39,123 bases of DNA, taken from NCBI GenBank assembly GCA_017539325.1, contig JAFYHD010000115.1, positions 1-39,123 of the forward strand. The letters are read 5' to 3'. Position numbers and translations under genes: made by a program. The notes under the pieces are model-generated. The model saw only the letters and a list, made by a program, of their open reading frames with translations, was not told where the DNA came from and did no database searches. This document shows, in pieces, positions 2,007 to 23,260 of this stretch; position 1 is the first letter of the stretch; the number at the start of each line of letters is the position of its first letter. This stretch comes from a bacterium. GTDB taxonomy: Bacteria; Auribacterota; UBA3054.

Positions 2007-5000
2007 CTATTTGGTGAAGATCTCGACCTCCGCCACGTGGCCGGCCGGATTGTCCGTGTTCTTGTCGATCCTGATCATGACGTAGCGGGCCTTGACCGGC
2101 TCCACGGTGATCTCGTCGCCGTCCTTGACAGCTAAGCAGTCGTCCTTGCCGCCGATCTCAGTCCAGGAGTGCAGGTCAGGCGAAACCAGGTAGCGGTAGC
2201 TGTAGCGGCGCTGGCCGTCGTGGAAGAAATAGGCGTGCAGCCTGAAGAATTCCGTCTCCTCGCCGAGGTCGATTATCGCCCACTGCGGATGAGGCGCGCC
2301 GCCGCTCCACATGGAGGTGGCGCAGTCCGTGTCGCCGTCGACCAGCTGCGATTCCGTCGGGTTTTCCGAAGGCGAGGTGAAGACCGGACAGTTGTAGGCG
2401 AGGTTGCCGACCTTGCCGGGCATCCTCGGGATGCCCTGGTGCCAGCAGTCTCTCTCCCCTAGCAGCGTGCATTCGTAGATGCGGTTGACTTTGCCCTCGA
2501 AAGTGACTCTTACTTTCTTGATCTGCGTCTGCTTGAAAGTGCAGACGAAAAGTTTTCCGTGGATGGGAAGCTCGGGCGCGGCGGAATCGCCCACCAGCAT
2601 TTCCTCGCCGTCCGCCTTGGTGACGTATATCTTGGCTTTGGCTTCGGCGATGTTGTTGCCGAAGAGCTTCACGCAGTAGGCCTGCGTCGGTTCGTCAAGA
2701 TTGCATTCGAACCAGGGCTCCTTGTCATCGGAAGCGGGACGCCAGAACTTCGGCGTGTTGTCGTTGGCGATGCCGTCGTTGATGGCCCTATAGTCGCATT
2801 TTTCATCCGTAGAGGAAGCGAGTATCGGCAGGAAGGTCATCAAGCCTTCCAGGCTCTTCAGCTGCTGGTCCCTGATCTGGCGCTCATCGAAATTCTGGAG
2901 GCTCTTTTCCGGGAAGCATTCCCAGAGCGGCGTGAAGGCGTTTTCCTTTCTCCAGCTGTCGAAGTGTTTGGCGTATTCCTTTATGAAGCGCTTGACGGTC
3001 GTGTTGTAAGTCTCGACAGGCTTGGGAGAACGCTTGAAATCCATCACTACCTCGCGGGCGGAAAGCGGGATCTCGACATAGTTGTCAGACCCTATGGCGG
3101 CGGGCTTCCCGTCAACGGAAACGCTGGCCCTCAGGGCGAAGTACGGGACCTTGATGAAAACTTTCCTCGGCTTGCCCCAGACGCCGCCCTCCTGGTCGAT
3201 CTTGAGGTCGACCTTCAGTCCTTCGGGGGTTCCCTTGGCGACAAGGTCGACGTTGCCGAACTGCGTGTTGAAGCGCCTGGCCACGATCTCTTTTCCCGGC
3301 AGCGTCCAGGCGGGCGCCACGGCGGACATTAGGTAAAGGTTGCTGACTTCGTCTTCCCTGACCAGCATGTTGCGGATAAGCGAAACGTACTTCACGTGTC
3401 CCCAGCCGTGAGGCGTGAAGTTCCCGCCGAAGTCGCGGTTGCTCCAGGGGTCTAAGCAGAATTCAAAGAAGGCGTGAGTCGAGGAGGTGTGCAAAAGGAC
3501 GCCGTAGAGGTCCTTGATCACGTTCTCGTCGCGGCCGAGGTAAAGGTCGGCCATGGAGGCTTTCATCGTGTTGTAGTGATGAAGGCAGTTGCAGCCAAGC
3601 GCGTTGAACATGATGAGCCCTTCGTCGCTCCAGTCGACTTCCCTTATGTAGTCGATAGTTTTCTTGACGCGCTCGTCATGGCTTCCCATGACGAACGTCG
3701 GATAGCTCGCCTCCATGTTGCCCCAGTGCGCGCCGCTCTTTCCGGTGTCGATGCCGGGAGGAATGAAGCCGTTGGTCGCGATGGCAACGTTGACATGGTA
3801 CATCATGTTGGAGATGAAATTGTCGGCGTAGGCGCGGTACTTTTTCGATTCCTCTTCCTGTCCCAGCTCCTTGGCGCAGGAGGCCATCATCTCAAAGGCT
3901 TTGGCGTTGTAGAAATTGTGCGCCGTGTAGTGGCCGGTGATGCCCTCGTTGTCGTAGGGGCCCATGGCCGGCATCAATTTCAGAGGATCGTTTTCTATGA
4001 TGTTCGTGACGTAGTTGAAGTTCTTGACGAGGCGCGGCCACATCCTGTCGAGGTAATCCCTGTCCTTCGTCTTGTAGTACCACATGAGAATGGCGTAGGG
4101 GCCGATGTTTTCCTGGTCGTTGAAGAAGCGGCCGTCGTCGTGCTGCGTCTTCTCGTAATAGGTGGCGACCTTTTTGCCTTCCTCGGGGAAGCCCGCGAAG
4201 AGCCAGGACCAGCTGAAATACATGGAGTCCCTGGGGAAGAAGCCGGTGTACTGCATTTCGTTGACGCCCTGGGAATAGTAGCCGTTGCCCTCGTCGTCAC
4301 GGGCTATGGCCATGTTGATAAGGCTGGTCCAGAAAGTGGCCTGGACTTTTTCCTCGGGGATCTTGAGGTCAACGGCCCTGAGAAGCAGCTGGTCCCAGTC
4401 TTCCTTGACTTCCCTTAATTTCCGATCGAAGGCTTCCGGATCCTTCATGAGGTTCAGCATGGTGCCGACCGCCGCCCAGTTCGTGGGAGCGTTGGGCATA
4501 AGGAAGACGAGGCTCTTGCTCTCGCCCGGCTTGAGGTCTACGGAATAGTCGGCGATGCAGACCGGAGTGGTCTCGGTCACGGCGTACTGCGAGCCTTTGA
4601 ACGTTCCCTCGTAGGGATGGTCTATGGTGGCGGAGATCTTTCTGGAAGGATCCTGCGGATAAACGGCCAGGATCTCGTCGTTGCGCAGAACGGCGTCGCC
4701 TCTCAGCTCGTAAGTCGATTCGCGCTGGAACGCGTAGTTTCTGCTGGCTTCTATGCGCGGCGTCACGCCTTTGTGGCGCAAGCCGGTTGCGATATACGCG
4801 ACGCCGTCGCTGGTGGAGACGTTCTCCATCGTCACTTTCGTGAAGGCGTACAGCGGGCTTCTCGGGACTCCGCGCTCAATATTGAAGGCGAACATCTTGA
4901 AGGAGTACTTTATCCCCATCTTCTCCATCGAATAGTTGACGATGGGATAGATGTTGTCTTCCAAATAGCGGTTGCGGTTCTGGACGAGATCGAGCTTCGG

Positions 5001-5219
5001 GCCGTACATGAACATCAGTTCCGCCGCCCTGTTGTAAAGGTACCCTTCCGCCGTGACCATGAAGCCTTTGGGAGAGTCCATGGTGCCCAGCTGGTCCGTG
5101 GGCCTGCTGTAATAGCAGAAAGGTTTCTCGATGTCGATCTCGGGCGAGACCATCGGGTGAGCGAGGGCAAAGGAGGCCGTAAGCAAGGCAAGGGCTGCGA
5201 GTATTGAAGCGGATCTCAT
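2007..5219 (-). CDS. Large secreted protein, putative (alpha/alpha)6 glycoside hydrolase-like, with C-terminal discoidin/CBM32-like domains (paralog A)
   Basis: Signal peptide; central helical region (FFPRD, GPYDNEG, HWGN, PHGW); discoidin motifs LVDGD...W...PQWAIIDLG...ARYVMI...EVEIF. Confidence 0.65.
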   Translation of the reverse strand: MRSASILAALALLTASFALAHPMVSPEIDIEKPFCYYSRPTDQLGTMDSPKGFMVTAEGYLYNRAAELMFMYGPKLDLVQNRNRYLEDNIYPIVNYSMEKMGIKYSFKMFAFNIERGVPRSPLYAFTKVTMENVSTSDGVAYIATGLRHKGVTPRIEASRNYAFQRESTYELRGDAVLRNDEILAVYPQDPSRKISATIDHPYEGTFKGSQYAVTETTPVCIADYSVDLKPGESKSLVFLMPNAPTNWAAVGTMLNLMKDPEAFDRKLREVKEDWDQLLLRAVDLKIPEEKVQATFWTSLINMAIARDDEGNGYYSQGVNEMQYTGFFPRDSMYFSWSWLFAGFPEEGKKVATYYEKTQHDDGRFFNDQENIGPYAILMWYYKTKDRDYLDRMWPRLVKNFNYVTNIIENDPLKLMPAMGPYDNEGITGHYTAHNFYNAKAFEMMASCAKELGQEEESKKYRAYADNFISNMMYHVNVAIATNGFIPPGIDTGKSGAHWGNMEASYPTFVMGSHDERVKKTIDYIREVDWSDEGLIMFNALGCNCLHHYNTMKASMADLYLGRDENVIKDLYGVLLHTSSTHAFFEFCLDPWSNRDFGGNFTPHGWGHVKYVSLIRNMLVREDEVSNLYLMSAVAPAWTLPGKEIVARRFNTQFGNVDLVAKGTPEGLKVDLKIDQEGGVWGKPRKVFIKVPYFALRASVSVDGKPAAIGSDNYVEIPLSAREVVMDFKRSPKPVETYNTTVKRFIKEYAKHFDSWRKENAFTPLWECFPEKSLQNFDERQIRDQQLKSLEGLMTFLPILASSTDEKCDYRAINDGIANDNTPKFWRPASDDKEPWFECNLDEPTQAYCVKLFGNNIAEAKAKIYVTKADGEEMLVGDSAAPELPIHGKLFVCTFKQTQIKKVRVTFEGKVNRIYECTLLGERDCWHQGIPRMPGKVGNLAYNCPVFTSPSENPTESQLVDGDTDCATSMWSGGAPHPQWAIIDLGEETEFFRLHAYFFHDGQRRYSYRYLVSPDLHSWTEIGGKDDCLAVKDGDEITVEPVKARYVMIRIDKNTDNPAGHVAEVEIFTK

Positions 5220-5358: not shown

Positions 5359-8300
5359 TCAATACACTTCGATCTCGGCGGCGTGGCCGCCTTCGTTGAC
5401 CGTGTTCTTCTCGATGACGAGCATGACGTAGCGGGCGCTCTCCTTTGCGAAATTGGTATCGCCGCCTTCCTTGCAGTAGTTGCTGCAGAGGTCGTCCATT
5501 CTCCCGACTTCCTTCCAGTCGGAGAGATCTTTCGAGATCCAGCAGGAGTAGCCGTAGTGGCGGTGGTCGTGGGAGTAGAGGTAGGTCTTGATCTTGGAGA
5601 TCTCCTCAGCCTTGCCGAGGTCTATTATGGCCCACTGCGGATGCGGCGGCGCGCCGCTCCAGTAGTTGGGCTCGCTCGTTGTCTCGCCGTCCACCAGGAA
5701 GGTCCCGACGTAGCCTTTTTCGTGCGGAGAGGTGAATACCGGGCGCCCGTAGGCCAAGTTTCCGCCCTTCTTGTCCCCTCTCAGGCCGCCTCTTTGCCAA
5801 ATGTCGGAGGGAGAAAGCAGCTGGCATTCCGAAACGGTGAAGCCGCCGCCCTCGAAAACGACCTTGACCTTTTTCACCATGGTGTCCGGGAAGAGGCAGA
5901 CGTAGAGGTCGCTCCTCACGGGGATGGCGGTCTTTTCGGTGGATCCGACCAAAACTTCCTCGTCGTCCTCGTTCACGACGAAAACCTTCACGGCGGGCTT
6001 GTCAAGGCCGCGGCCGAAGATCCTCACGCAGCCGGCCAGAGCCGCCGATTTCAGTTCGCACTCGATGCTGGAAGTTTCCTCGCCGGGCGCCGGACGCCAG
6101 GCCCTAGCCTGGTTGGCGTCGGTGATGCCGTCGTTGACGGTCTTAGGTTCGGTGCCGTTGGCGCTGGAGGAGGCGGTGACGGGCTGGAAGGTCATGATGC
6201 CTTCCTTTTCTTTCATAGAGGCGTTCTTCTGCTGGCGTCTGGGCATCTTCTCCAATTCCTTTTCCGGGAAGCATTCCCAATTCGCTTCCGTCAGGTGCTC
6301 TTTCTTCCATTCGGCGAAGCGCCTGGCGTATTCCTTGATGTACCAATCGACTGTGCTCGCGTAATCCTGGTACGGCCCTTCCGGACGATCGAAGGTCAGA
6401 ACCACTTCCTTCACGTCAAGGGGCACTTCCACCTGTCCGTCGGCGATCTCGGCGGGTCTGCCATCCACCGTTGCCTTGGCGTTCAAGGCGTAATACGGAA
6501 CCTTGACGAAAACATTATTGGGCTTGCCCCAAACGCCGCCGTTCTGCTCGATGGCAATGTTTATCTTCATGCCTTCCTCGGTGCCCTTGACGACAAGGTC
6601 GACGTTGCCGAAGAGCGTCAGGAAGCGCTTGGCTGTGATCTCCTTTCCGGGCAGCGTCCAGGTGGGCGCGGTGGCGGAGAGAAGGAAGAGATTGGTGTTC
6701 TCGTCTTCCCTGACCATCATGCTCCTAACGAGTGAGAGGTACTTCACGGCGCCCCAGCCGTGGGGAGTGACGTTGTGCAGGAAGTCCCTGTTCTGCCAGG
6801 GATTCAGGCAGAACTCAAAGAGCGCGTGGGTTGAGGAAGTGTGCAGGAGAACTCCGTAAAGGTCTTTGACGACGTTCTCGTCGCGGCCCATGTAAAGGTC
6901 CGCCATAGAAGCCTTCATGGTGTTGTAGTGGTGCAGGCAGTCCCAGCCAAGGGCGCGGAACATGATGAGCCCTTCGTCGCTCCAGTCGTTCTTCCTTATG
7001 TGGTCGATGGTCTTTCTGACGCGCTCGTCTTTTGATCCGAAAATGAAGGTCGGATAACTCGTCTCCATGTTGCCCCAGTGCGCGCCGTTCGTCCCGGTGT
7101 CGATGCCCGGCGTGATGTAGCCGTATTGGTCGACCAAGCCGTTGAGTCGGCCGACGAGGTTGGAGTAGAAGTTCTCGTAGTAAGCGAGGTAATTTTTCGA
7201 ATCCTCTTCCAAGCCGAGGTCTTTCGCGGCGGAAGAAAGGTATCTGAAAGCTTTGGCGTTGTAAAAATTGTGGGCGGTGTAGTGGCCGGTGATGCCCTCG
7301 TTGTCGTAGGGGCCCATCTTCGGCATAAGCTTCAAGGGATCATTGGCGATGATGTTGGTCGTGTAGGTATAGTTCTTCATCAGAACAGGCCACATCTCCT
7401 TGAGATAATCCAGATCCTTGGTCTTCTGGTACCACATAAGGATGGCGTAAGAGCAGATGTTCTCCTGGTCGATGTAGAAGCTGCCGTTCTCCAGCTGATA
7501 GCGCTTGTACTGATCGACGACTTTTCTCCCCTCGTCCGGCATGCCGGCGTAGTACCAGGCCCAGGTGAAGTACATCATGTCGCGGGGCACGAACATGTAG
7601 TACTGCATTTCGTTGACGCCCTGGTAATATGTGCCGTCGCCCTGGTCGTCCCTTGAAATGGCCATGTTCATGAGGCTGGTGTAGAAAGCGTTCTCCACTT
7701 TCTTCTCCGGTAGCCTCAGTTCAACGGCCTTATTCAGCAGCTTGTCCCAGTCTTCCTTGGCTTCCGCGAGCTTTTTGTCGAAGACCGCGGGATCGAGGTA
7801 GGCTTCCAGTTCGCTGATCTCGTCAGGGGAAGTCGGCATATTGGGATAGAGTATTACCACGCTCTTGCTCTCTTTGGGAGCAAGGCTGATCTCATAGCGG
7901 GCGGGACACCAAGGGGTGGTCTCCAGGACCGCCTCCTCGTAGCCGCGGAAAGCGCCTTTGTAGATAGTGTCGATGGTGGCGGTGACGTGTCTTTCGGGAA
8001 CATCCTGGTAGAGCGCGATCACTTCGTCGTCCCTAAGCGCGGCGTTGCCCCTGAACTCGTAGAGGGAGCCTCTGCTGAAAGGATAAGCGGAGTTAATGTC
8101 TATACGCCTGGTCGAACCTTTGTAGCGCGTGCCGACGCCGAAATAAGCCGTGTTGTCGCTGTCGGTAACGTTCTCCATAGTCACTTTGACGAAGCAGTAG
8201 AGCGGGCTTCTGGGGACGCCGCGTTCTTTCGTGAAGGCGAACATCTTGAAAGTGTATTTCACGCCAAGCTTCGTCAGATCATAGCTCATGATGGGATACT

Positions 8301-8574
8301 TGTCGTCCTCGAAAACTCTGTTGCGGTTGTGCGTCGGCAAGTACTCCGGCCCGTACATGAACATCAGTTCCGAAGACCTGTTGTAGAGGTAGCCTTCCGC
8401 GGTCACCATGAAGGCGTACGGCGCGTCCCAGACGCCCAGCTGGTCGGTCGGGCGGCTGTAGTAGCAGAAGGGCTTGGCCTCGTCTATTTCGGGCGACGCC
8501 ATGGGGAAAACGGGGACGGCCAGGGACGGAACGGAAGCAAGCAGGAGCGCTAAAACGAGCGGATATTTTTTCAT
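5359..8574 (-). CDS. Large secreted glycoside hydrolase-like protein with discoidin/CBM32-like domains (paralog B)
   Basis: Colinear with 2007..5219; identical blocks such as KPFCYYSRPTDQLG, GPYDNEGITGHYTAHNFYNAKAF, LHHYNTMKASMADLY and PHPQWAIIDLG. Confidence 0.65.
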   Translation of the reverse strand: MKKYPLVLALLLASVPSLAVPVFPMASPEIDEAKPFCYYSRPTDQLGVWDAPYAFMVTAEGYLYNRSSELMFMYGPEYLPTHNRNRVFEDDKYPIMSYDLTKLGVKYTFKMFAFTKERGVPRSPLYCFVKVTMENVTDSDNTAYFGVGTRYKGSTRRIDINSAYPFSRGSLYEFRGNAALRDDEVIALYQDVPERHVTATIDTIYKGAFRGYEEAVLETTPWCPARYEISLAPKESKSVVILYPNMPTSPDEISELEAYLDPAVFDKKLAEAKEDWDKLLNKAVELRLPEKKVENAFYTSLMNMAISRDDQGDGTYYQGVNEMQYYMFVPRDMMYFTWAWYYAGMPDEGRKVVDQYKRYQLENGSFYIDQENICSYAILMWYQKTKDLDYLKEMWPVLMKNYTYTTNIIANDPLKLMPKMGPYDNEGITGHYTAHNFYNAKAFRYLSSAAKDLGLEEDSKNYLAYYENFYSNLVGRLNGLVDQYGYITPGIDTGTNGAHWGNMETSYPTFIFGSKDERVRKTIDHIRKNDWSDEGLIMFRALGWDCLHHYNTMKASMADLYMGRDENVVKDLYGVLLHTSSTHALFEFCLNPWQNRDFLHNVTPHGWGAVKYLSLVRSMMVREDENTNLFLLSATAPTWTLPGKEITAKRFLTLFGNVDLVVKGTEEGMKINIAIEQNGGVWGKPNNVFVKVPYYALNAKATVDGRPAEIADGQVEVPLDVKEVVLTFDRPEGPYQDYASTVDWYIKEYARRFAEWKKEHLTEANWECFPEKELEKMPRRQQKNASMKEKEGIMTFQPVTASSSANGTEPKTVNDGITDANQARAWRPAPGEETSSIECELKSAALAGCVRIFGRGLDKPAVKVFVVNEDDEEVLVGSTEKTAIPVRSDLYVCLFPDTMVKKVKVVFEGGGFTVSECQLLSPSDIWQRGGLRGDKKGGNLAYGRPVFTSPHEKGYVGTFLVDGETTSEPNYWSGAPPHPQWAIIDLGKAEEISKIKTYLYSHDHRHYGYSCWISKDLSDWKEVGRMDDLCSNYCKEGGDTNFAKESARYVMLVIEKNTVNEGGHAAEIEVY

Positions 8575-8587: not shown

Positions 8588-9631
8588 TTATTTTGTTGCT
8601 TGTAATTTTTCTTTGGCGGCGTTCATGACCATCTCGACTGTCACGGCTTTCATGCAGCGATGGTCGCTTTCGCAGACTCTCCGGCAGCGCTTATGGCAGT
8701 CGTGCTCTCCCCTCAGAAGAACGTTGTTGGAGCCTATGGGCGCAGTCCTCAGCCAGTTGGTGGGCCCGAAGATTGCGACGACGGGAGTTTTCACGACGGC
8801 GCCGAGGTGCATGGTGCCGGTGTCGTTTGTAATGAGGAGTGTTGCCTTTTCCAAAAGAGCCGCCAGTTCAAAGAGCGTCGTCTGGCCGGAAAGGTCATGG
8901 CACCAGGAAGCGGCGCCCTCATCCCTTCCGCCGATCTTTTCAGCCACGTCGCGACAGACCGCTGCGTCGGACTTTCCGCCGACCAAATAGCAGTCAGCTC
9001 CCGTTTCCTTGCGAAGTTTCAGGGCAGTTTCGGCGTAGTTTTCCGGCAGCCAGCATTTGGCAGTGCCGTAGCTGGCGCCCGGGCAGAGGACAAAATAATT
9101 TTCCCTCAACCTGGCGGCGTATTCCTTCGCTTCCTCGGGAATCTTGATATCAGCATCCAGGGTGTGGTCGACCGTATGGTGCACCAGTTTCTCGACGAGA
9201 TAAAGCTGGCAGTGCGGCTGCTGCTCGCCGTCCAGGTGATGCGGGAAAGGCACCTTGCGGTTCAATAGCATGCCCCGCATATAGGTGGCCCAGCCCATCC
9301 TTCTTCTTATGCGCGCCAAATATGGCACGAGCGCGGCGTCGAAGGAATTGGGAATGATGAGGCAAAGGTCGAAGTTCATTTTCTTCAATTCTTTCCCCAG
9401 GTCCCAGCGGTCGTCAAGTCCCATTATCCCTTTCCTTATCTCGAAGGGAATGACTTCGTCAACGTAAGGGCACATCTTCCAGAGATCGGCGACCGACTTC
9501 TTGGCCAGAACGGAAATATGGGCGTTGGGGCGGAACCTTCTAAGCTCCCTCATGGCCGGCATCGCGAGCACGCAGTCGCTGAGCCAGTTCGGAGACCTAA
9601 CGAGGAGTTTATAGGGAGAGAAATCCGCCAT
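8588..9631 (-). CDS. waaF: Lipopolysaccharide heptosyltransferase II-like (GT9)
   Basis: RSPNWLSD (usually PNWxGD), CPGASYGTAKCW, NDTGTMH, VVAIFGPT. Confidence 0.85.
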   Translation of the reverse strand: MADFSPYKLLVRSPNWLSDCVLAMPAMRELRRFRPNAHISVLAKKSVADLWKMCPYVDEVIPFEIRKGIMGLDDRWDLGKELKKMNFDLCLIIPNSFDAALVPYLARIRRRMGWATYMRGMLLNRKVPFPHHLDGEQQPHCQLYLVEKLVHHTVDHTLDADIKIPEEAKEYAARLRENYFVLCPGASYGTAKCWLPENYAETALKLRKETGADCYLVGGKSDAAVCRDVAEKIGGRDEGAASWCHDLSGQTTLFELAALLEKATLLITNDTGTMHLGAVVKTPVVAIFGPTNWLRTAPIGSNNVLLRGEHDCHKRCRRVCESDHRCMKAVTVEMVMNAAKEKLQATK

Positions 9632-11421
9632 TATTTCTCCTTGATCTCAGGATGGAGTTTCGTGTAGCTCCTGCGCCACTTGCGGTGGGCCCAGAGGTAG
9701 TATTCCGGCGCTCTTCTTACTTCCCGCTCAAGGCAGGACATCGCTCTCTGCGTCGCTTCCCTGATGTCTTTTTCGGCGTCGTCCGTTTCCGCTACAAAGA
9801 AGGGTTCGTAAATGTAAGCCTGGAAATGGTGATTGGGCAGTTCCCGGCAGAAGGCCGGAACGATCGGGCAGTGCGTCATCCTGGCCAGGGCCGCCGCGGC
9901 GTTAGTCGTGGAGCAGACTCTGCCCATAAAGATGGTAGGCACGCCGCCTTTGCCGGCGTACTGGTCGGCCACGAGGCCGACTTCGCCTCCCCTTCTCAAA
10001 GTTTTGATCAAGGGGCGGATCGCTTCCTTCTTGTTGACGAGCTTAAGGCCCACCGCCTCCCTTTTCCTGGCGATGTCCCTGTAGACAAGCTTGTTCCTGA
10101 AAGGCCTGCCCACCGCGGTGAAATCGCCGCCCAAAAGCGTGCTGGTCCAGCTCTGGCTTTCCCAGTTGCCGTAATGCGCCGTGAAGTAAACTATCCCGCC
10201 CGGCCCCATCGTGTGCGCCTTGGCGACTCTGTCGTAGTGCATGGACTCGAAGCCGCTGGGCACGCGCTTAAGCAGGCGCGGCATGATAAGGACGCCGACG
10301 GCCACGCGCGCAAGGTTCCTGAAGCTGGCCTTGGCGATGCTCCTCACTTCCTTGTCGCTCTTCTCCGGGAAAGCGTGCCTTATGTTGTCTATCGCAATGG
10401 CGCGCTTTTTCAAGCCGAGATAATAGCTGGCGTTGCCAAAAAAGTCAGCCATCTTATAGCAGGAGTCAATGCTCATTTTCGAGCAAAGATATTTCAGGAA
10501 GAGATAGACCGAGTATCCGATAAGCCCGACGACGTAGGCCGTCTCGATAATGACTATGATCCAGCCGAGGACGCCGGTGGCCACGAACTTTTCGCCTAAG
10601 AGCCACTGCATACCCGTCGCGGCGGCGGCTTCCTTGTCATACGGCCAGATGCGGCCGGTAATTTTGATGGTGAAGACCCAGCCGAAGTGGGTGGCGATGG
10701 CCGGCCACAAGCATCCTGTCTTCATGGTGAGGCCGCAGAGCATGAGAGAGCAGATGAAAAGCCCTATGAAGCCAGGTATGATCACCTGCCAATCGCAAAG
10801 AGGCTTCATGAAGAGCGCCATGTGATAGAATCCCGCCAGCGGGTCGGTGCCAACGAAATTGGCCTGGGCGACCTTGATGCTCTTCAGAAAATGATCGAGG
10901 CTGAAGATGTGCAATGAAGCGAAGATCAACGATGTGAACAAGGCGGAGTATATGCTCCTGAAACGCGTCTTGAAAGACGAGAACAAAAGTCCGCGGAAGA
11001 TCGTCTCCTCCATCAAGGCCACGACAAAGGAGGAAAGAAGCGCGACGGCGCCCTTGGAAAGAATGTAGCTCCAAGACCTCGCTTGGTAATGCCTGAAGCC
11101 CGCGAAATACTGGATGACGGTCATCAGGGCGATCGTTAGGATGGCAACAAGGAACCAGCTTCCGAACTCGTTCTTGATATGCTGGCGCTTGTAATAGATC
11201 TTGTACGGTATCTCTATTCCCAGCTTCTTCCAGAAAGCGAGGAAAACCAGGACCTCGGAAACAAGGAAGACCCTGTTGAAGATCTTGCGGAAAATATAAT
11301 CCTTGGTAATGTCCAGCTGGCTCGTCACCCTGAAGACCCAGGGTGCCGCGACCATCGCGATAAGAAGGCCGAGGAGCGCCAGAAGGGCGACCAGTTTTAT
11401 GTTAACTTTTTTCTCTGCCAT
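9631..11421 (-). CDS. Fusion of CPBP (CAAX/Abi) intramembrane glutamic protease domain and LpxL/HtrB-family lipid A acyltransferase
   Basis: N-half multi-TM with EETIFRG, FASLH and HFGWV; C-half with NIRHAFPE, TAHYGNWE, LVADQ and YLWAHRKWR; one continuous ORF. Confidence 0.8.
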   Translation of the reverse strand: MAEKKVNIKLVALLALLGLLIAMVAAPWVFRVTSQLDITKDYIFRKIFNRVFLVSEVLVFLAFWKKLGIEIPYKIYYKRQHIKNEFGSWFLVAILTIALMTVIQYFAGFRHYQARSWSYILSKGAVALLSSFVVALMEETIFRGLLFSSFKTRFRSIYSALFTSLIFASLHIFSLDHFLKSIKVAQANFVGTDPLAGFYHMALFMKPLCDWQVIIPGFIGLFICSLMLCGLTMKTGCLWPAIATHFGWVFTIKITGRIWPYDKEAAAATGMQWLLGEKFVATGVLGWIIVIIETAYVVGLIGYSVYLFLKYLCSKMSIDSCYKMADFFGNASYYLGLKKRAIAIDNIRHAFPEKSDKEVRSIAKASFRNLARVAVGVLIMPRLLKRVPSGFESMHYDRVAKAHTMGPGGIVYFTAHYGNWESQSWTSTLLGGDFTAVGRPFRNKLVYRDIARKREAVGLKLVNKKEAIRPLIKTLRRGGEVGLVADQYAGKGGVPTIFMGRVCSTTNAAAALARMTHCPIVPAFCRELPNHHFQAYIYEPFFVAETDDAEKDIREATQRAMSCLEREVRRAPEYYLWAHRKWRRSYTKLHPEIKEK

Positions 11422-12701
11422 TACTTCTCAGCTTTCTCTTCCTTTTCCTTCTCCGCTTTCTCTTCCTTCAGTTCGTCGATGCGTTTTCCTAGCTCGACTT
11501 CGGAAGCGGTGTTGAAGCCTTCCATAACGTAGCGGACTACGCCGGCCTTGTCGATTATGAAGGTCTTGGGAATGTTGTCGATGTCGTAAGTCTTGACCAG
11601 GGAGCGGTCGGGGTCGGAGTAGATGATGGTGTCCAAGCCTCTCTGGAAAGCCAGCAAAGTTTTCATGTCCTGCTGGTCGGAGACGTTGACGAACTGCACG
11701 CCCGTCCCGGCGTATTTGGAATGCAGCTTGTCGATCACGGCCATGTATTCGCGGCAAAGCTGGCTCCAGCTCGCGAAGAAGGTAAGAACGATGACGCCCT
11801 TGGCGCCGGGCTTGATTATCTTGTCTTTGCCGGAAAGGTAGTTGACCTTGATGTCGGGCGCCTTCTTGCCCAGCAGCGCGTGCCTGACGTACATGCTGGG
11901 CAGCTCCTGCAGGATGTCGAGGTTCGACAAAAACACTCCCTGCGGCGGCGTGTAATAAAAAAGCTTGTTGTCGACATAGGTGTTGACGAGAGCGCGCTTC
12001 AGGGTCATCATCGAAAGCAGGTTCCCGTAAAGGTTGTAGCGCTTGAACTCTTTTATTATGCCGTCGTTGCTGATCTTCATGCTGACTCTATCCGGGACAA
12101 AGTTGGAAAAGCCCTGGGGGCCCATGGCAGAAGCCTGTTTCGCTATGCCTTTCAGCATGTCGGAGTCGTGCCTGATATTTCCCTCGAACTCCCAGCCGTC
12201 GGACGCTTTCTTCACCTTCGTGAAAATGTAGTTGTAGCGCAGCCCTTCGTAGGAGTTGGTCTTCGCCGGGGTGATCAAAAACGGTGTCGCGCGCTCCATG
12301 AAGGACAGGAAGATGTCGCCCATAGACGCGAGCGTCCAGAAAGAAACCGCGACGGTTTTGCCGCTTGGGGAAATGGAAACTTCCCAGCCGTTGGTGCCGT
12401 TCGAGACCGTCAGTTCGTGCGAGCGGGTTATGCCGTCCATGGCGTGCGTCCACACTTCACTGCGGAAGCGGTAAGGCGGCTCCTGGATGATGCTGCCGGA
12501 CTGAAAGACGTCGCCCTGCATGGAGTGGACCATCGACGTGTAGGCAAGGTCAAGGCACTCAAGCGAAGCCAGTCTCTCTGAGATCTCATAAAAAGCCTTC
12601 GCCACCGGCTCCTTTTCCCCGAAGAGGTTGGAGCTTTCATTTTGGGCGGCGAAAAGTGCGGAGGCGCATACAAAAACTAAAAACAATATTCTCATGCTCA
12701 T
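11421..12701 (-). CDS. Exported LolA-like domain fused to a TlpA/redoxin-type thioredoxin fold
   Basis: Signal peptide; PYRFRSE, VSNG and LFYYTPPQG LolA-like features; GKKAPD, FFASWSQLC and IPKTFIIDKAGVVR. Confidence 0.65.
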   Translation of the reverse strand: MSMRILFLVFVCASALFAAQNESSNLFGEKEPVAKAFYEISERLASLECLDLAYTSMVHSMQGDVFQSGSIIQEPPYRFRSEVWTHAMDGITRSHELTVSNGTNGWEVSISPSGKTVAVSFWTLASMGDIFLSFMERATPFLITPAKTNSYEGLRYNYIFTKVKKASDGWEFEGNIRHDSDMLKGIAKQASAMGPQGFSNFVPDRVSMKISNDGIIKEFKRYNLYGNLLSMMTLKRALVNTYVDNKLFYYTPPQGVFLSNLDILQELPSMYVRHALLGKKAPDIKVNYLSGKDKIIKPGAKGVIVLTFFASWSQLCREYMAVIDKLHSKYAGTGVQFVNVSDQQDMKTLLAFQRGLDTIIYSDPDRSLVKTYDIDNIPKTFIIDKAGVVRYVMEGFNTASEVELGKRIDELKEEKAEKEKEEKAEK

Positions 12702-13747
12702 TCTTCCATAAAGGGCGAAGCGTATCTGATACGCCAGGAGGTTTCCGGCAGCTTTATTTCAGGCTTCAATCCGCCGAAAGTTGAAAAGGCTTTCTTCAGC
12801 ATGTCGACCACTCCTTCCTCATCCTCGTACTCGACGAGCTCGTAATCGACAAGGCCGAGTTCCTTGAAAGTTTCCTTCACTTCGTCCATGTAGCCGATCT
12901 TATCGGTCAGGCCGTTTTCCAGCGACTGCTTGGCGGTGTAGATCCTGCCGTCGGCAAGCTCCCTAACCTTTTCCACGGGCATGCGGCGCCCCTCGGCGAT
13001 AACGTTGACGAACTGGTCGTACAGTTCGTTTATGGTCGCCTGCACGACGTTGGAGACGGATTCCGAGACGCCCTTCATGGGATTGAGCATGTCTTTCATT
13101 GGTCCGGAGGTGAAGCTCACGCTCTTCACGCCGAGCTTTTCCGCGGCTTCCTGGAAATTTACGCCCTGCATCATGACGCCGATGGAGCCGGTTATCGTCG
13201 TCGGGGTGATGACGATCTTGTCGGCGTGCGCGGAGACGTAGTAGCCGCCGGAGGCGGCCACGCCCCGCATATAGGAGACAACGCAGCGGTTGGTGGAAGA
13301 GGAACGGAACTTTTTCACTTCCTGGTCGATGAAGTCGCAGGCGGTAATTTCGCCGCCCGGGCTGTCCACCACCAAAAGCAAGCCTTTGACGTCCTTGTCT
13401 TCCCTGGCGTGCCTGATGTCGTCTATGATGACGTCGGCCGTGCCTTCGTTCTTGCCCCAGAAGGAGCTTTTGTTCTCGCTGAAAGAAATGGCGCCTTTAA
13501 CTTCGATCTTGACGACCTTGTTCTTGGAAGTGTCGGAAGTTACGATCTCCTCTTCCCCGCAGGTTACCTCAAAGCGGCCCAAGAACCTGTCTATGGTGGA
13601 CGAGAGGGCCAGGAACGAGAGCGCGAGGACAACAAGTCCAACGCAGATTATGAAGGCTCCCAGCAGCCCCGAGCAGCCGCAGCCGCTGCTGAAGCGGCCG
13701 CGAGGGCTGGGGCTCGAAGGAGCGTCGGGAATGTTGTACTGATCCAT
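12698..13747 (-). CDS. sppA: Signal peptide peptidase SppA (S49, short form)
   Basis: DSPGG, AASGGYY, TITGSIGV, KDM and ADGRIYTA motifs; N-terminal TM anchor. Confidence 0.92.
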   Translation of the reverse strand: MDQYNIPDAPSSPSPRGRFSSGCGCSGLLGAFIICVGLVVLALSFLALSSTIDRFLGRFEVTCGEEEIVTSDTSKNKVVKIEVKGAISFSENKSSFWGKNEGTADVIIDDIRHAREDKDVKGLLLVVDSPGGEITACDFIDQEVKKFRSSSTNRCVVSYMRGVAASGGYYVSAHADKIVITPTTITGSIGVMMQGVNFQEAAEKLGVKSVSFTSGPMKDMLNPMKGVSESVSNVVQATINELYDQFVNVIAEGRRMPVEKVRELADGRIYTAKQSLENGLTDKIGYMDEVKETFKELGLVDYELVEYEDEEGVVDMLKKAFSTFGGLKPEIKLPETSWRIRYASPFMEE

Positions 13748-14934
13748 TATTTACTGACGAGTTCGTAGGTTTCCAAAGCGATCATGAGCTCTTCGTTGGT
13801 CGGGATGACCCAGACGGGGATCTTGGAAGAAGGCGCGGACACGCATCCCGCAAAGCCTCTTTCCCTGTTCTTCTCACCCAGTTCGAGCCCGAGCCCGGCG
13901 AGGTTGCCGCAGACCCATTCCCTCATCTCCGCGGAATTCTCGCCGATGCCGGCCGTGAAGACGATGGCGTCGGTCTTGGGAAGCAGCGAAACGTAGGAGC
14001 CCACGTACTTGGCGATGGAGTAAGCCGTCATCTCCAGAACGAGCTTGGCCTGCGCGTTGCCTCCTTCGGCGGCGCCTTCCACGTCGCGCATGTCGCTGGA
14101 GACTTCGGAAACGCCCAAGAATCCGCTTTGCTTGTTCAATATCTTGTTGACTTCCGCCGGGGCGATGCCGAGGTTCTCGATCATGTAGAGGACGATGGCG
14201 GGGTCGATGTCGCCGCTTCTGGTGCCCATAACGACGCCGGCCAGGGGCGTAAGGCCCATGGAGGTGTCGACGCACTTGCCGCCCTTGACGCAGGTGATGG
14301 AGGAGCCGTTGCCAAGGTGGCAGACGACGATGTTCACCTCGTCCAGCGGTTTGCCGCTCATCTCAGCGTAGGCTCTGGTCACGAACTTGTGGCTCGTGCC
14401 GTGGAAGCCGTAGCGCCTGATGCCGTTTTCCTTGTAGAACTTGTAAGGCAGGGCGTACTGGAAGGCCTTGGGCGGCATGGTCTGATGGAAAGCCGTGTCG
14501 AAGACCGCGACGTTGGGCACGCCCGGGGCGGCTTTCTGGCAAGCCACGATGCCGGCCATGTTGGCGGGGTTGTGCAAGGGAGCGAGTTTGCCGCATTCCT
14601 CGATGCACTTCAAAACCGAGTCGTCGATGACCGCGGAGGAGAAGAATTTCTCGCCGCCATGGACCACTCTGTGGCCGAAGGCGTCGATCTTCTGCCCTTC
14701 TTTCAGGACGTCTTTCTTGAGAGCTTCTATTACGTAGGAGACCGCTTCCGTATGGTCGGAGGCTTTGATGGGCGAAGACGGAAGCTTCGTTTCGCCATAC
14801 GACATCTTGAACATGGCGTCGCCGCCCAAACCGATCCTTTCCACCAGGCCTTTGGCGGCCACGGTGCGTTCGGGAAGCGAGATAAGCTGGAATTTAAGAC
14901 TGGAACTGCCGCAGTTGATGACAAGAATAAACAT
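13747..14934 (-). CDS. ackA: Acetate kinase
   Basis: LVINCGSSSLK, GHRVVHGG, APLHNP, FDTAFH, YGFHGTSH, FTAGIGEN, PTNEELMIA. Confidence 0.97.
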   Translation of the reverse strand: MFILVINCGSSSLKFQLISLPERTVAAKGLVERIGLGGDAMFKMSYGETKLPSSPIKASDHTEAVSYVIEALKKDVLKEGQKIDAFGHRVVHGGEKFFSSAVIDDSVLKCIEECGKLAPLHNPANMAGIVACQKAAPGVPNVAVFDTAFHQTMPPKAFQYALPYKFYKENGIRRYGFHGTSHKFVTRAYAEMSGKPLDEVNIVVCHLGNGSSITCVKGGKCVDTSMGLTPLAGVVMGTRSGDIDPAIVLYMIENLGIAPAEVNKILNKQSGFLGVSEVSSDMRDVEGAAEGGNAQAKLVLEMTAYSIAKYVGSYVSLLPKTDAIVFTAGIGENSAEMREWVCGNLAGLGLELGEKNRERGFAGCVSAPSSKIPVWVIPTNEELMIALETYELVSK

Positions 14935-15720: not shown

Positions 15721-18700
15721 ATGAAACGTTTATTCCTTCTCCTCGCGGCAGCCGCTTCCGTAGCTGCCATGAGTCTCATGGCCGATGAGGAAGTCATCTG
15801 GTCCGAGGATTTCAGCACCTTTGCCGCCGGCGACCTTATGTCCGCCCACAGCAACGAATGGGCCACCACGGGTCCCCATTACATCGTCGACGACAACGGC
15901 AACAAATGCGTCAGGTTCTACGCCCCCGACGGCGAAAGCTTAAAGGGCCTGAGCTTCATCAAGGTCCCCGACACCACCCCCTACTGCGGGCGCTACTACA
16001 TCCGCTTCTCCTGCAAGCTGAAACTTTTCAAAGAATCCCAGGTCATGCACGGTTTCCGCACTCCTGAGGATTACTTCATGTTCGACATGATCAACAAGCA
16101 CGGCGACGGCTACGGCGTCGACTGCGACCGTTCCTACGGGTCTCTGCTCTTCACCGACGGCCGCTTCCCGCACGACGAGTGGGCCGAATACAGCTTCCTT
16201 ATGGAGATCACCCCGAGCGCCTATCGTCTTAAAAACATGGTGGTGAACGGCGTCACCAACGACTTCGACATAGCCGTTAAGACCAGCGGCAGCGGCTCAA
16301 TCGGCAGCCGGCTCTTCTTCGGCGGCTGGGGCAACCCCGATTTCTATCTCGACGACTTCAAGCTGACCAAAGTTCTCAAGGAAGGCGAACCCGTCACTTC
16401 GGCCGTGGTCAACGGCAACCTGGACCTCGACACCGACGAGACCACCATCACCGTCGTCAACAAGGGCGGCGGCTCCTTCAACTACAAAGCCACCATCGCC
16501 GAGGGCTACGGCTTCGCTTCCCTTGAAAACGCGGAAGGCACCTGCGAAGGCTCCGCCACCGTCAAATTCAAAGTCGACCGCGACGCCATGGCCAGCCAGT
16601 ACTACCACGTCCCCGTCACCGTTAACGGCGGCGAAGCCGGCTCCGTCACGGTCTACGTCGGCGTGGCCAGCGGCCTTGTGCTTATGAACTGCGACTTCGA
16701 ATGCTACGAGGAAGGATTGCGACTCCCCGACCAGGACACCCTCTGGCAGAGCAACGGCCCGCACTATGTCATGACCGACGAAGGCAGCAAGTGCATGCGC
16801 TTCTACGCCGAGGAAGGACAGTCCCTCTACAACATCACCTACAACTCCATCCCGGACACCACGCCGTATACGACCAACTACTACGTGAAGTTCTCCTGCC
16901 GCATGAAAGTCATAGAGGAATCCCAGGTCATGCACGGCATCAGGAACTACTTCATGTTCGACGCCATCAACAAGCTCGGCAACGCCTACGTAGTGGACTG
17001 CCACCGCTTCTACGTCACCGAGATGAAACTGACCACGGGCTACTTCCCGAACGGCAAATGGACCGACTACAGCTTCGTTATGGACGTCACCCCGGGCTCC
17101 TACCGCCTGAGATCCATGACCATCAACGGCGTGACCGACGACTTCAACCTCCCCAAGGGTGAGGAATCCGGCCAGGGCTCCATCGGCAACGCCGTCTACT
17201 TCGGCGGCTGGGGCGCCCCCGACATCTACATCGACGACATCCAGATCGAGCTGGTCGAGAAAGAAGCCAAGCCGGAACTGGACGTTGAATTCAACGGCAA
17301 CATCGGCCTCGAGGAGAACGAAGCCATCATCACCATCATTAACCGCGGCGGCGGCACGCTCAACTACAACGTGACCTTGGGCGACGACTACGCCTGGGCC
17401 AGTTTGGAAGGCGCGGAAGGCTCCTGCCAGGGCACCGCTGAAGTCAAGCTCGTCCTAAACCGCGAGGAAATGGGCGAGGAATACTACCGCGGCACCATCC
17501 ATGTTGACGGCGGCGAAGCCGGAAGCGAGGACATCAATTTCGGCGTGGCCAGCGGGCACGTCCTCTACGGCAACGACTTTGAAATGTACACGGTCGGATT
17601 GCCCATAGTCGCCCAGGACGGCGCCTGGACGGGCAACGAAGCGAACCTTATCGAAACGGACACTTCCCAGTACCTCCGTCTGACGGAATACACCCTCAAC
17701 ATGTCGGTCCCCGACACCACTCCCTACGCCAACAAATACCTGCTCCGCTTCAACTGCCGCGCCAAAGCCAACAGCTTCGACGCCCAGATCTGCCACGGCT
17801 TCAAGAACGGCTTCATGATCGACGCCATCGACAAATTCGGCGACGGCCATTACGTCGTCGACCTCAACCGTATGAACGGCTCCTTCATGCAGCTGACCAG
17901 CGGCAGCTTCCCCCAGGGCGAATGGTGCGACTACGGCTTCCTTCTCGACCTCAGGACCGGCGTCGTCGCCATGAAGTCCATCTGGATCAACGGCGTGACC
18001 AACGACTTCGACCAGGCCGCCCAGAACCAGGACGGCATGAAGCTAGGCGACTTCAACATCTACGGCTGGGGCTTGCCCGATTTCTGCATCGACGACATGG
18101 AGATCACCCTTGTCGACCGCTCCGCCTACCCCGATCCCGTTTTGCCCTCCTGCGTCCCGGTCTCTTACCGCGACTCCTATGAGGCAACGGTCATCAACAA
18201 CGGCGGCGGCTCCGCCAAGACGACCGTCACGGTCCTCGACTACACCGACTTCGTGACCGTCACCAAGCCCGCCGGCAATCTTGTCACCACCGAGAAACTG
18301 ACCTTCAACGTCTCAAGGGAAGGCCTCCAGGACGGCTTCTTCTACGCCCGCTACCGCTACGCCTACGAAGGCATCGACAGCGAGATCACAGGCGCCGTGA
18401 CAGGGCTTGTCTCGTTCGCGGTCGGCGGCTGGTACTACGGCACCGACTTCCAGCCCCCCTACTTCCGCGAAGGCTCCCTGAACGGGCAGTCCGGCTGGAG
18501 CAGCAGCGAGGAGATCGTTATAGAAAAGATCAACGGCGAATCCTGCCTTACCTTCACGGACAAATCCACCGCTTTCCTTGCCGCCTCCGTCCCGAACCAG
18601 GCCTCCTTCACCCTGCAGGGCCGCGTCCTTACGGAAACCACCGAAGAGAGCGCTTACATAAGGATCGGCACGATCGACAGCTGGGGATACCGTCCCATTT

Positions 18701-19110
18701 ACCTGGTCAAGGACAACAACACCTCGACCATCAACATCTGCTACGTGAACGACGAAAACGAGCTGCAGCCCATGGTTCAGAAGCCCCTCTCCGAAGACTG
18801 GGTCGACTTTAGTTTCACCATGAACACCGACGTTAACGTCGCAATGATAACCGAAGCCTCGCTAGGCGATGAGACAAAGGAAGTCGAAATTCCGCTCGAT
18901 CCCGAATACGACTGGACGGCCATCGACCAGTTCTCCTTCGCCGCCTACGCCTTTGACAACGACAGCTCCTTATCCCAGGCTGTCGCCGCCGACGGGGCTC
19001 AGACCGGATTGCACATCGCCAGGCTGATCATCCATGATCCCGCGGTGCCCGAACCGGCCATCGCTCTCTTCCTGCTCGCTCTGGGAGCCCTCTTCCTTAG
19101 ACGCAAGTAA
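15721..19110 (+). CDS. Repetitive surface protein with PEP-CTERM sorting signal
   Basis: Signal peptide; about 293-aa repeats (beta-sandwich plus Ig/BACON-like linker); C-terminus VPEP + hydrophobic stretch + RRK; GGAG RBS. Confidence 0.85.
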   Translation: MKRLFLLLAAAASVAAMSLMADEEVIWSEDFSTFAAGDLMSAHSNEWATTGPHYIVDDNGNKCVRFYAPDGESLKGLSFIKVPDTTPYCGRYYIRFSCKLKLFKESQVMHGFRTPEDYFMFDMINKHGDGYGVDCDRSYGSLLFTDGRFPHDEWAEYSFLMEITPSAYRLKNMVVNGVTNDFDIAVKTSGSGSIGSRLFFGGWGNPDFYLDDFKLTKVLKEGEPVTSAVVNGNLDLDTDETTITVVNKGGGSFNYKATIAEGYGFASLENAEGTCEGSATVKFKVDRDAMASQYYHVPVTVNGGEAGSVTVYVGVASGLVLMNCDFECYEEGLRLPDQDTLWQSNGPHYVMTDEGSKCMRFYAEEGQSLYNITYNSIPDTTPYTTNYYVKFSCRMKVIEESQVMHGIRNYFMFDAINKLGNAYVVDCHRFYVTEMKLTTGYFPNGKWTDYSFVMDVTPGSYRLRSMTINGVTDDFNLPKGEESGQGSIGNAVYFGGWGAPDIYIDDIQIELVEKEAKPELDVEFNGNIGLEENEAIITIINRGGGTLNYNVTLGDDYAWASLEGAEGSCQGTAEVKLVLNREEMGEEYYRGTIHVDGGEAGSEDINFGVASGHVLYGNDFEMYTVGLPIVAQDGAWTGNEANLIETDTSQYLRLTEYTLNMSVPDTTPYANKYLLRFNCRAKANSFDAQICHGFKNGFMIDAIDKFGDGHYVVDLNRMNGSFMQLTSGSFPQGEWCDYGFLLDLRTGVVAMKSIWINGVTNDFDQAAQNQDGMKLGDFNIYGWGLPDFCIDDMEITLVDRSAYPDPVLPSCVPVSYRDSYEATVINNGGGSAKTTVTVLDYTDFVTVTKPAGNLVTTEKLTFNVSREGLQDGFFYARYRYAYEGIDSEITGAVTGLVSFAVGGWYYGTDFQPPYFREGSLNGQSGWSSSEEIVIEKINGESCLTFTDKSTAFLAASVPNQASFTLQGRVLTETTEESAYIRIGTIDSWGYRPIYLVKDNNTSTINICYVNDENELQPMVQKPLSEDWVDFSFTMNTDVNVAMITEASLGDETKEVEIPLDPEYDWTAIDQFSFAAYAFDNDSSLSQAVAADGAQTGLHIARLIIHDPAVPEPAIALFLLALGALFLRRK
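15787..19040 (+). repeat. Intragenic tandem repeats with about 880-bp period
   Basis: Units start near 15787, 16675, 17557 and 18427; shared motifs PDTTPY, ESQVMHG, NGVTxDF, GGWGxPD, NxGGG and GGEAGS...GVASG. Confidence 0.8.
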
Positions 19111-22449: not shown

Positions 22450-22561
22450 ACCAATTTCCTCTTGGGTGAAGTTTAAATAACCAACCATATTTTATCACTA
22501 CTTCCCCCAAAATCCTATACCAAAATAAAACAGCTTCACCTTCAAAAAGTCTCGTGTTTTC

Positions 22562-22592
22562 AGTTATCTTCAGCAGCTTGCTGAAGATAACT
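22562..22592. repeat. Perfect 14-bp inverted repeat
   Basis: agttatcttcagca-gct-tgctgaagataact. Confidence 0.7.
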
Positions 22593-22752
22593 TGCTTTTA
22601 GTTTATATTGCGCTATTATAATAAGTTAACTTAAACAGAGGTGCAAATTTAATTAATTTTTCAAACATTTTTGCTGTCGCTTTTGTATCGCACAACCATC
22701 AAAAAACGATTAAATTTTTTTAAAACCCTCACTAACAAATAAACAAATAAAG

Positions 22753-22777
22753 AAAAAGCCCAGCGAATGCCAGGCTT
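22753..22777 (-). terminator. Terminator after the island membrane ORF
   Basis: Minus strand aagcctggc-attc-gctgggctt (two G-U pairs) followed by T residues. Confidence 0.6.
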
Positions 22778-22806
22778 AATTATGAAGAAAAGAAGAACCA
22801 ATTTTT

Positions 22807-23202: not shown

Positions 23203-23260
23203 AGTTCCCCTCTCACATTATAATTAGTTATATTTTCATTATGGTTAAAAACAATTGATT

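Follow-up and report, generated by a model that had tools for sequence, protein, structure and literature searches.

Lipid A assembly is among the best-mapped bacterial pathways and has been studied almost entirely in Proteobacteria. The acyltransferases LpxL and LpxM (PF03279; Acinetobacter baumannii LpxM, 5KN7) are known as stand-alone enzymes of about 300 residues that carry their own N-terminal membrane helix. Here we describe a gene in a 39,123-nucleotide stretch of DNA from a bacterium of the phylum Auribacterota (contig JAFYHD010000115.1 of assembly GCA_017539325.1, positions 1 to 39,123; hereafter ‘the window’) that joins an eight-helix membrane domain of the CPBP family to an LpxL/LpxM-type acyltransferase. 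The C-terminal half of the encoded protein has the fold, the His-x4-Glu dyad and the lipid A/core gene neighbourhood of LpxL/LpxM, whereas the membrane anchor of the known enzymes gives way to the CPBP domain, whose last helix takes that position.

The N-terminal half resembles the Rce1/CPBP glutamic intramembrane endopeptidases (PF02517; Methanococcus maripaludis Rce1, 4CAD) in its Pfam match, its eight-helix fold and its EExxxR and FxxxH motifs. It differs from Rce1 in its third motif, which reads HxxxV/I where HxxxN/D is usual in CPBP proteins, in its location within a lipid A gene cluster and in having no evident prenylated or other protein substrate. To the myxosortase MrtC, other Mrt-type CPBPs and TIGR03008, which belong to the same superfamily, it shows weak hidden Markov model (HMM) similarity, with scores far below the cut-offs.

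CPBP-fold proteins are also found as partners of envelope enzymes. In the SagB–SpdC peptidoglycan release complex (6U0O), such a protein is paired, as in the fusion, with a membrane-anchored envelope enzyme; unlike in the fusion, the two are separate proteins, the partner SagB is a glycosidase (glucosaminidase) and SpdC is reported to be without key catalytic residues (PMC7387801). In Staphylococcus aureus, the CPBP-family membrane protein LnsB is described as the obligatory partner of the acyltransferase LnsA, which acts on a membrane-anchored, lipid-bearing substrate (PMC13559823; PMC7387801). LnsA is reported to be an NlpC/P60 enzyme that works outside the cell with phosphatidylglycerol as donor, unlike the predicted cytoplasmic LpxL half; the CPBP motifs of LnsB are divergent and nonessential, and lnsA and lnsB are neither contiguous nor fused, whereas here the fusion is covalent and the motifs are invariant. 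The locus therefore shares with these non-catalytic CPBP partners the pairing with an envelope enzyme but not the decay of the motifs, as its five motif residues are invariant across 56 sequences.

One gene encodes both domains

A preliminary description of this DNA, made from its letters alone, had reported a 596-residue open reading frame with CPBP motifs in its N-terminal half, LpxL motifs in its C-terminal half and a one-base overlap with a waaF-like gene. All the named motifs were found in their places and the overlap was confirmed. The parts of the gene are:

9631..11421, minus strand: CPBP–LpxL fusion open reading frame, 596 residues, ATG start, uninterrupted; stop codon at 9631-9633
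10531..11421, minus strand: CPBP/Rce1-like eight-helix membrane domain, residues 1-297 (Pfam PF02517, VIA-align)
10993..11010, minus strand: CPBP motif 1, EETIFR (E138, E139, R143), residues 138-143
10909..10923, minus strand: CPBP motif 2, FASLH (H171), residues 167-171
10675..10689, minus strand: variant of CPBP motif 3, HFGWV (H245; V249 in the usual Asn/Asp place), residues 245-249
9634..10524, minus strand: LpxL/LpxM-type acyltransferase domain, residues 300-596 (Pfam PF03279, Foldseek, VIA-align)
10159..10176, minus strand: HYGNWE catalytic motif (H416, E421; HX4E dyad), residues 416-421
9961..9966, minus strand: conserved DQ (D486, Q487) of the acyltransferase domain, residues 486-487

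Pfam places PF02517 (Rce1-like) at residues 126-250 (E value 8.8e-14; 52 bits against a cut-off of 22.4) and PF03279 (Lip_A_acyltrans) at residues 304-584 (E value 1.4e-39; 136.5 bits against 22.3), the latter match covering profile positions 17-295 of 295. A further motif, WAHRKW (residues 577-582), is invariant in 12 fused homologues. The stop codon of the fusion and the start of the downstream gene for a family 9 glycosyltransferase (GT9; 8588..9631) overlap by one base, in the sequence TAATG, and the start of the fusion overlaps the stop of the upstream thioredoxin-fold gene likewise.

The join was checked by aligning contigs from independent public sequencing runs over the domain boundary near 10520-10530. 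One contig (X2, record 4; 4329 bases) covers 9400-11700 and with it the entire fusion gene, two others bridge the join (X3 record 6, 9976-11139; X9 record 16, 10446-10764), and an RNA-library contig (X15 record 1) bridges it over 10250-10729 with 0 differences, which indicates presence in the library rather than proven transcription. Across the contigs of these three independent DNA runs and the RNA library, no indels are listed between 9746 and 11366. In a large protein collection, 28 of 29 homologous clusters, from 97% down to 38% identity, contain both Pfam domains, and the sole exception, of 341 residues, is labelled partial by its source; public annotation calls the protein either a CPBP metalloprotease or a lauroyltransferase. 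An assembly error or a frameshift uniting two genes would be the trivial explanation. Given the bridged junction, the recurrence of both domains in clusters of several sources and a single open frame in 12 other genomes of the genus and order, its probability is close to nil, and the sequencing error that the preliminary description had allowed for is refuted. One genuine gene joins both domains.

The CPBP module keeps its active-site residues

Residues E138, E139, R143, H171, H245, H416, E421, D486 and Q487 are invariant in the 12 fused proteins. Alignments of 26, 28 and 56 CPBP domains with 20-42% identity leave only 6-9 columns invariant, and the five residues of the CPBP module are among them; the way in which homologues were collected accounts for some of this, yet the remainder of the sequence differs strikingly in this respect. 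When a profile of the family is compared with Rce1 chain 4cad_C, EExxxR and FxxxH fall on EELGWR and WSLWH (E value 0.0012), presumably the stretches with the catalytic Glu and His of that enzyme.

With the active-site Glu-Glu-Arg and two His kept, the CPBP module is predicted from its sequence to be catalytically competent. The decay of catalytic residues that the preliminary description had considered was not seen, as Glu, Arg and His are strictly conserved down to roughly 20% identity. When the window protein and seven split relatives were scored, no curated NCBIfam model claimed this CPBP subfamily.

The acyltransferase module probably belongs to a standard lipid A pathway

By its sequence, the C-terminal half is an LpxL/LpxM-type late acyltransferase with an intact His-x4-Glu dyad. 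Across 37 LpxL sequences the columns equivalent to H416 and E421 do not vary either, and DQ is likewise conserved in that alignment. By analogy with the known enzymes, the module would transfer an acyl chain to Kdo2-lipid IVA (Kdo, 3-deoxy-D-manno-oct-2-ulosonic acid) or a near relative. The same genome also contains lpxK, lpxI, waaA and another, stand-alone lpxL, so that the pathway would be standard except that one of its two late acyltransferases is the fusion; the stand-alone paralogue has a strong N-terminal anchor (hydropathy 2.58).

Two candidate roles for the CPBP module were discarded. Substitution for the UDP-diacylglucosamine hydrolase LpxH was rejected because LpxI is present in the genome and lpxI lies near the CPBP gene in Brocadia as well; LpxH itself (TIGR01854) was not found in the window genome, which is 90.65% complete. 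Replacement of a lost LpxL membrane anchor is unsupported, since for the N-terminal helix the best 19-residue hydropathy is 0.89-2.01 among the split LpxLs linked to CPBP (11 proteins) and 0.70-2.58 among paralogues without that link (16 proteins), two ranges that overlap.

Predicted structure and membrane sidedness

An AlphaFold2 model of the 596-residue chain, built on a 101-row alignment, has a mean predicted local distance difference test (pLDDT) score of 94.0 and a predicted template modelling (pTM) score of 0.89, a value that, for two domains, suggests a defined mutual arrangement of the modules. In this model the eighth CPBP helix (284-297) is followed, after a break of two residues, by helix 300-315 of the acyltransferase. 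Model residues 285-596 align in VIA-align with LpxM 5kn7 (Z 27.6, root-mean-square deviation (rmsd) 5.3, 272 residues aligned), and a comparable match is PatA 5f2t_A (Z 26.8, rmsd 2.5). As the LpxM alignment starts at residue 285, the last CPBP helix occupies the place of the LpxM N-terminal membrane helix. The best match of the N-terminal domain is SpdC from the SagB–SpdC complex (6u0o_A; Z 14.6, 217/248 residues aligned, model 1-300), followed by Rce1 (4cad_L; Z 11.4, 223/253 residues aligned, model 6-303), both well above the next helical rows (Z 5 or less). Foldseek agrees with the VIA-align matches (5knk, E value 1.3e-11). A complex prediction for a natural split pair of CPBP and LpxL (locus L017) scored 0.00 in two runs, made without control runs, and weighs neither for nor against an association of the two proteins.

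Charged residues are unevenly distributed among the CPBP loops of 28 family members. The loops after transmembrane helices (TM) 2, 4 and 6 and the tail after TM8 contain 0.18-0.29 Lys+Arg per residue (net +1.3 to +3.4), the remaining loops 0.07-0.15. Under the positive-inside rule this places the C terminus, and therefore the LpxL domain, in the cytoplasm, while EExxxR, just before cytoplasmic loop 4-5, and H245, just after loop 6-7, both fall in the cytoplasmic half of the membrane. The active site of Rce1 faces the cytoplasm, and the CPBP active site and the LpxL domain studied here would likewise both lie on the cytoplasmic side.

The fusion is restricted to one clade

We searched 41 genomes at the genus, order and phylum level for the fusion. 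Within the genus it is present in 7 of 8 other genomes: whole in five (G001, G003, G004, G006, G007), as two pieces inside one open frame in G005 and, at the ends of contigs, in two parts in G008; G002 (83% complete) showed the paralogue only. Within the order, a single match runs over both halves in six of nine genomes, at 35-41% identity, another (G014) holds the fusion as two contig-end pieces, and the two least complete (G016, 74%; G017, 64%) show weak matches to the C-terminal half only. None of the 23 remaining phylum-level genomes gave a match spanning both halves. One homologue from the protein collection carries the source label Victivallaceae. When 98 distinct CPBP domains were placed in a maximum-likelihood tree, the 13 fused rows grouped together as one clade with a Shimodaira–Hasegawa-like approximate likelihood ratio (SH-aLRT) support of 100, consistent with a single fusion event. 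The fusion is thus kept within a clade, a point that the preliminary description had proposed to check.

Another LpxL fusion was seen in two phylum-level genomes, G026 and G034. In both loci checked, the gene after lpxK is about 640 codons long and encodes LpxL (PF03279) fused to an ELM1-like domain (PF06258; L123:333-2264 and L124:332-2254, respectively); neither genome yielded a homologue of the CPBP half. Like the CPBP–LpxL gene, this LpxL–ELM1/KdoT-like fusion lies right after lpxK and joins LpxL to a partner tied to the same lipid intermediate, but that partner is a soluble GT-B type transferase at the C terminus rather than a polytopic membrane domain at the N terminus. LpxL genes downstream of lpxK seem prone to fuse with other enzymes of the same lipid.

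Split relatives often lie in lipid A gene clusters

Outside the order, a stand-alone homologue covering most of the N-terminal half occurs in 13 of the 23 phylum-level genomes. Within 3 kb of this homologue, five of the 13 have an LpxL gene on the same strand and six have lpxK. Gene order reads lpxK-CPBP-lpxL in G023, G032 and G040; lpxK-lpxA-CPBP-lpxL-GT9-GT4 in G035; and lpxK-lpxA-CPBP, one opposite-strand gene and then lpxL in G027. The CPBP gene adjoins lpxK in G018 and is divergent from lptF-lptG in G019, G022 and G031. The fused loci of the order resemble these clusters, with lpxK upstream in L009 and L012 and a GT9 gene downstream in L009, L010, L011 and L013.

Public genomes, one per species, were then scanned with the signature HAG[WC]VFxIK, which yielded 162 confirmed relatives; 80 loci were kept and examined for six marker genes with HMMs built from the loci described above, 6 of the 80 being places already among those loci. 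A gene of the lpxK, lpxL or lpxD type occurs on the same strand within 6 kb of the CPBP gene in 32 of the 80. Twelve loci have lpxK and/or lpxL beside it, two more have lpxL 1.6 and 4.6 kb off, and a further pattern, a hexapeptide acyltransferase immediately downstream, characterizes 18 Planctomycetota loci mostly labelled Brocadiaceae; in L048, the only one of these checked by Pfam, CPBP is followed by lpxD and then lpxI. Ten Verrucomicrobiia-type loci have a ComFC-like gene downstream, and two of the 80 show an unverified marker match on the opposite strand. Although relatives are not independent of one another, at least four separate and well-supported clades in the tree show the linkage between CPBP and lipid A genes.

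Because the same two proteins are made from adjacent genes in lipid A clusters of related lineages, the fusion records a pre-existing partnership, which, judged from gene order, is older than the fusion itself. The preliminary description had regarded separate halves in close relatives as an argument against the architecture. Separate halves were found in distant relatives only, the genus and order being fused, and as the distant halves are usually adjacent, they strengthen rather than weaken the functional link.

Other features of the split relatives were noted in passing. In Verrucomicrobiia-type loci (L020-L022, L024, L026, L027, L055, L071, L083, L090, L092, L094, L098, L099, L104 and L105) the CPBP gene is regularly followed by the ComFC-like gene, which encodes a double zinc ribbon and a phosphoribosyltransferase domain; three such loci are divergent from lptF-lptG. 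In two Binatia-type loci (L058:4303-5946 and L061:4099-5946) an AMP-binding acyl (acyl-AMP/CoA) ligase gene, lipid-related and outside a lipid A context, lies directly upstream of CPBP on the same strand. An Omnitrophota member (L080:5944-7674) has 576 residues, of which about 300 form a C-terminal extension without a Pfam match, and similar extensions occur in several representatives (P0042, P0072, P0074, P0094, P0155, P0164 and P0173).

Candidate functions of the fusion

We tentatively favour, at not quite an even chance, a two-module inner-membrane enzyme of late lipid A acylation in which an active CPBP module handles the lipid-anchored intermediate of LpxL. The C-terminal module would work as an acyl-carrier-dependent LpxL/LpxM-type acyltransferase at the cytoplasmic face of the membrane. 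In the cytoplasmic leaflet, the CPBP module would act on the same intermediate as LpxL (Kdo2-lipid IVA or a closely related lipid); it may capture this lipid in a membrane-open cavity and would probably hydrolyse the lipid or an attached group, before or after acyl transfer, and it would not cut sorting signals from exported proteins. The fusion, its conservation, the gene neighbourhoods, the invariant residues and the folds are observed, and the sidedness follows from charge bias; that the modules cooperate physically, what their substrate is and whether hydrolysis takes place are what we infer. An active module is favoured because the motif residues that are decayed or nonessential in SpdC and LnsB are invariant here.

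A more specific version appears to us quite improbable, namely that the subfamily is the first of the Rce1 superfamily with a glycolipid substrate, a lipid A precursor hydrolase that would remove an acyl chain or head-group substituent in the cytoplasmic leaflet and pass the product to the tethered LpxL for re-acylation. If true, the fusion would be a self-contained lipid A remodelling machine, and the subfamily would supply a missing lipid A step in PVC-group bacteria, Auribacterota and anammox bacteria.

Several observations weigh against an active lipid-handling module. The position four residues after H245 is Val in the window protein and Val or Ile throughout the family (consensus GLHAGWVF), so that with Asn/Asp replaced the active site is not canonical. 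The members of the subfamily come without any biochemical result, and to our knowledge the characterized catalytic CPBP enzymes are all peptidases and a lipid substrate is known for none of the superfamily. On the acyltransferase side, the NCBIfam equivalog cut-offs for LpxL are unmet (the best, NF006270, at 163.6 bits against 248), and the acceptor lipid is accordingly read from context. The genomic linkage is also not universal: 10 of the 23 phylum-level genomes gave no N-terminal-half homologue covering at least 200 residues, none of the six marker genes lies within 6 kb in 36 of the 80 public loci, and CPBP has unrelated neighbours in Binatia and Omnitrophota loci and in most of those from Gammaproteobacteria. 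Finally, in the CPBP-fold proteins characterized so far as partners of envelope enzymes, the motif residues are reportedly not used (SpdC, PMC7387801; LnsB, PMC13559823).

The invariant Glu, Arg and His would equally suit a true intramembrane peptidase that cuts a protein of the lipopolysaccharide (LPS) pathway, such as an LpxL partner, LpxK, WaaA or an Lpt component, and so couples proteolysis or quality control to late acylation, in parallel with the control of LpxC by FtsH/LapB in Escherichia coli. The characterized catalytic CPBPs are peptidases (Rce1 by the title of its 4cad entry, and a myxosortase CPBP enzyme reportedly so), the gene adjoins lpxK and lpxL, or lptFG, in several lineages, and the active site would face the cytoplasmic side, where the pathway enzymes sit. 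We nevertheless find a peptidase somewhat doubtful, as neither a candidate substrate nor a conserved cleavage motif was identified, we know of no precedent for a protease fused to an enzyme of the pathway it regulates and, a weak point, a chain modelled as one rigid unit (pTM 0.89) may better suit cooperation on one substrate. Structure comparison points in another direction, towards a non-catalytic membrane scaffold that docks LpxL at the right depth and presents the lipid, as SpdC does for SagB and LnsB for LnsA: SpdC in its complex is the closest structural match of the N-terminal domain (6u0o_A, Z 14.6 over 217 residues), the last CPBP helix sits where LpxM has its N-terminal membrane helix and LnsB is reported to be needed with LnsA for lipoprotein N-acylation in vitro while its CPBP motif residues are nonessential (PMC13559823; PMC7387801). 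A scaffold would leave unexplained why E138, E139, R143, H171 and H245 are among only 6-9 invariant columns down to 20% identity when the motifs of known scaffolds are decayed or dispensable, and the overlapping N-terminal-helix hydropathies do not support a lost LpxL anchor; we consider it unlikely. The CPBP module may also be a membrane sensor that regulates lipid A acylation, as the preliminary description proposed.

The same description had leaned towards a cleave-and-acylate sorting enzyme, in which the CPBP half removes a PEP-CTERM- or MYXO-CTERM-like signal and the LpxL half lipidates the new end. In favour of this idea, the window genome encodes an exosortase and contains six PEP-CTERM matches, including one at 19042-19107 of the window, and the fusion protein is weakly similar to Mrt-type CPBP models (MrtS, E value 1e-7; MrtC, 7.7e-5). 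It scores far under the curated cut-offs, however (MrtS 32.3 against 130, MrtC 22.5 against 195, Mrt_core 18.9 against 100, MrtJ 17.1 against 75), does not match TIGR03008 at E values up to 0.01, and all seven split relatives are also under every cut-off. PEP-CTERM is already assigned to the exosortase, a separate gene on another contig, which was found in 33 of 41 relatives and not in the other eight; these include G027 and G035, which are 95-96% complete and carry lpxK-lpxA-CPBP-lpxL. The neighbours are lipid A/LPS genes (lpxK, lpxA, lpxD, lpxI, the GT9 heptosyltransferase gene, lptFG) rather than genes of proteins with sorting signals, and C-terminal sorting signals are cleaved at the outer face of the membrane, whereas the active site and the acyl-carrier-dependent domain would be cytoplasmic. 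No link to a sorting system was seen in neighbourhoods or co-occurrence, in an analysis that included no search for a new signal class. Of the two points of the proposed domain-architecture search, conservation of the fusion in a clade held and co-occurrence with a sorting system did not; coupling to C-terminal protein sorting is unsupported and highly improbable.

Other genes in the window

The fusion lies in an overlapping same-strand run that consists of genes for acetate kinase, an S49 SppA-like peptidase, the thioredoxin-fold protein, the fusion and the heptosyltransferase. The other features of the window are:

8588..9631, minus strand: GT9 heptosyltransferase II-like (waaF-like) gene, directly downstream of the fusion (Pfam PF01075; TIGR02195, 207 bits against 134.6)
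11421..12701, minus strand: thioredoxin-fold (TlpA/ResA-like) gene, upstream of the fusion
12698..13747, minus strand: SppA-like S49 peptidase gene, overlapping its same-strand neighbours
13747..14934, minus strand: acetate kinase gene, head of the overlapping run
2007-5219 and 5359-8574, minus strand: two tandem genes of about 1070 codons each, ending in an F5/8 type C (discoidin) carbohydrate-binding domain
15721-19110, plus strand: 1129-codon open reading frame without a Pfam domain at E values up to 1e-6, its end matching the PEP-CTERM signal at 19042-19107
23261-25048, minus strand: AlwI-type restriction endonuclease gene, in a low-GC island
25052-26965, minus strand: D12-class N6-adenine DNA methyltransferase gene, with two matched stretches
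27408-28277: Fic-domain gene, beside the low-GC island

In the thioredoxin-fold protein (11421-12701) the redox domain covers only residues from about 278 to 400; Pfam finds nothing in the roughly 270 residues at the N terminus, and the protein closes with a Lys/Glu-rich repeat. The first 940 or so residues of each tandem gene product are also without a Pfam match. The exosortases of the window genome (G000:C127:7045-7860) and of other genomes of the order have open frames of about 640-780 codons, compared with about 280-300 in most other families sampled, which suggests an extended or fused exosortase in the genus and order. The low-GC island (22500-27400) has 36-44% GC against about 55% elsewhere and looks like a horizontally acquired restriction-modification unit.

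Discussion

A search of the searchable literature, which leaves out subscription journals and bioRxiv supplements, returned no paper in which a CPBP/CAAX term occurs together with an lpxL (or lpx) term. This agrees with the preliminary description, which did not recognize the architecture as characterized. Both domain families are already known; the fusion architecture, and above all the recurrent linkage of CPBP and lipid A genes, appear undescribed.

In several deep lineages lpxK, lpxL, lpxD and lpxI are accompanied by a CPBP protein that resembles a membrane hydrolase and whose active-site residues are intact, and in one order this protein is joined to LpxL itself; the pattern suggests an accessory step or factor that is lacking from the textbook lipid A pathway. 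Relatives of the organism turn up in runs labelled as ruminant gut metagenomes, and the structure of their lipid A may therefore bear on host–microbe signalling. As a single polypeptide with five named residues, the fusion offers a direct experimental handle on this partnership, one that would widen the view of the roles that CPBP/Rce1-type proteins play.

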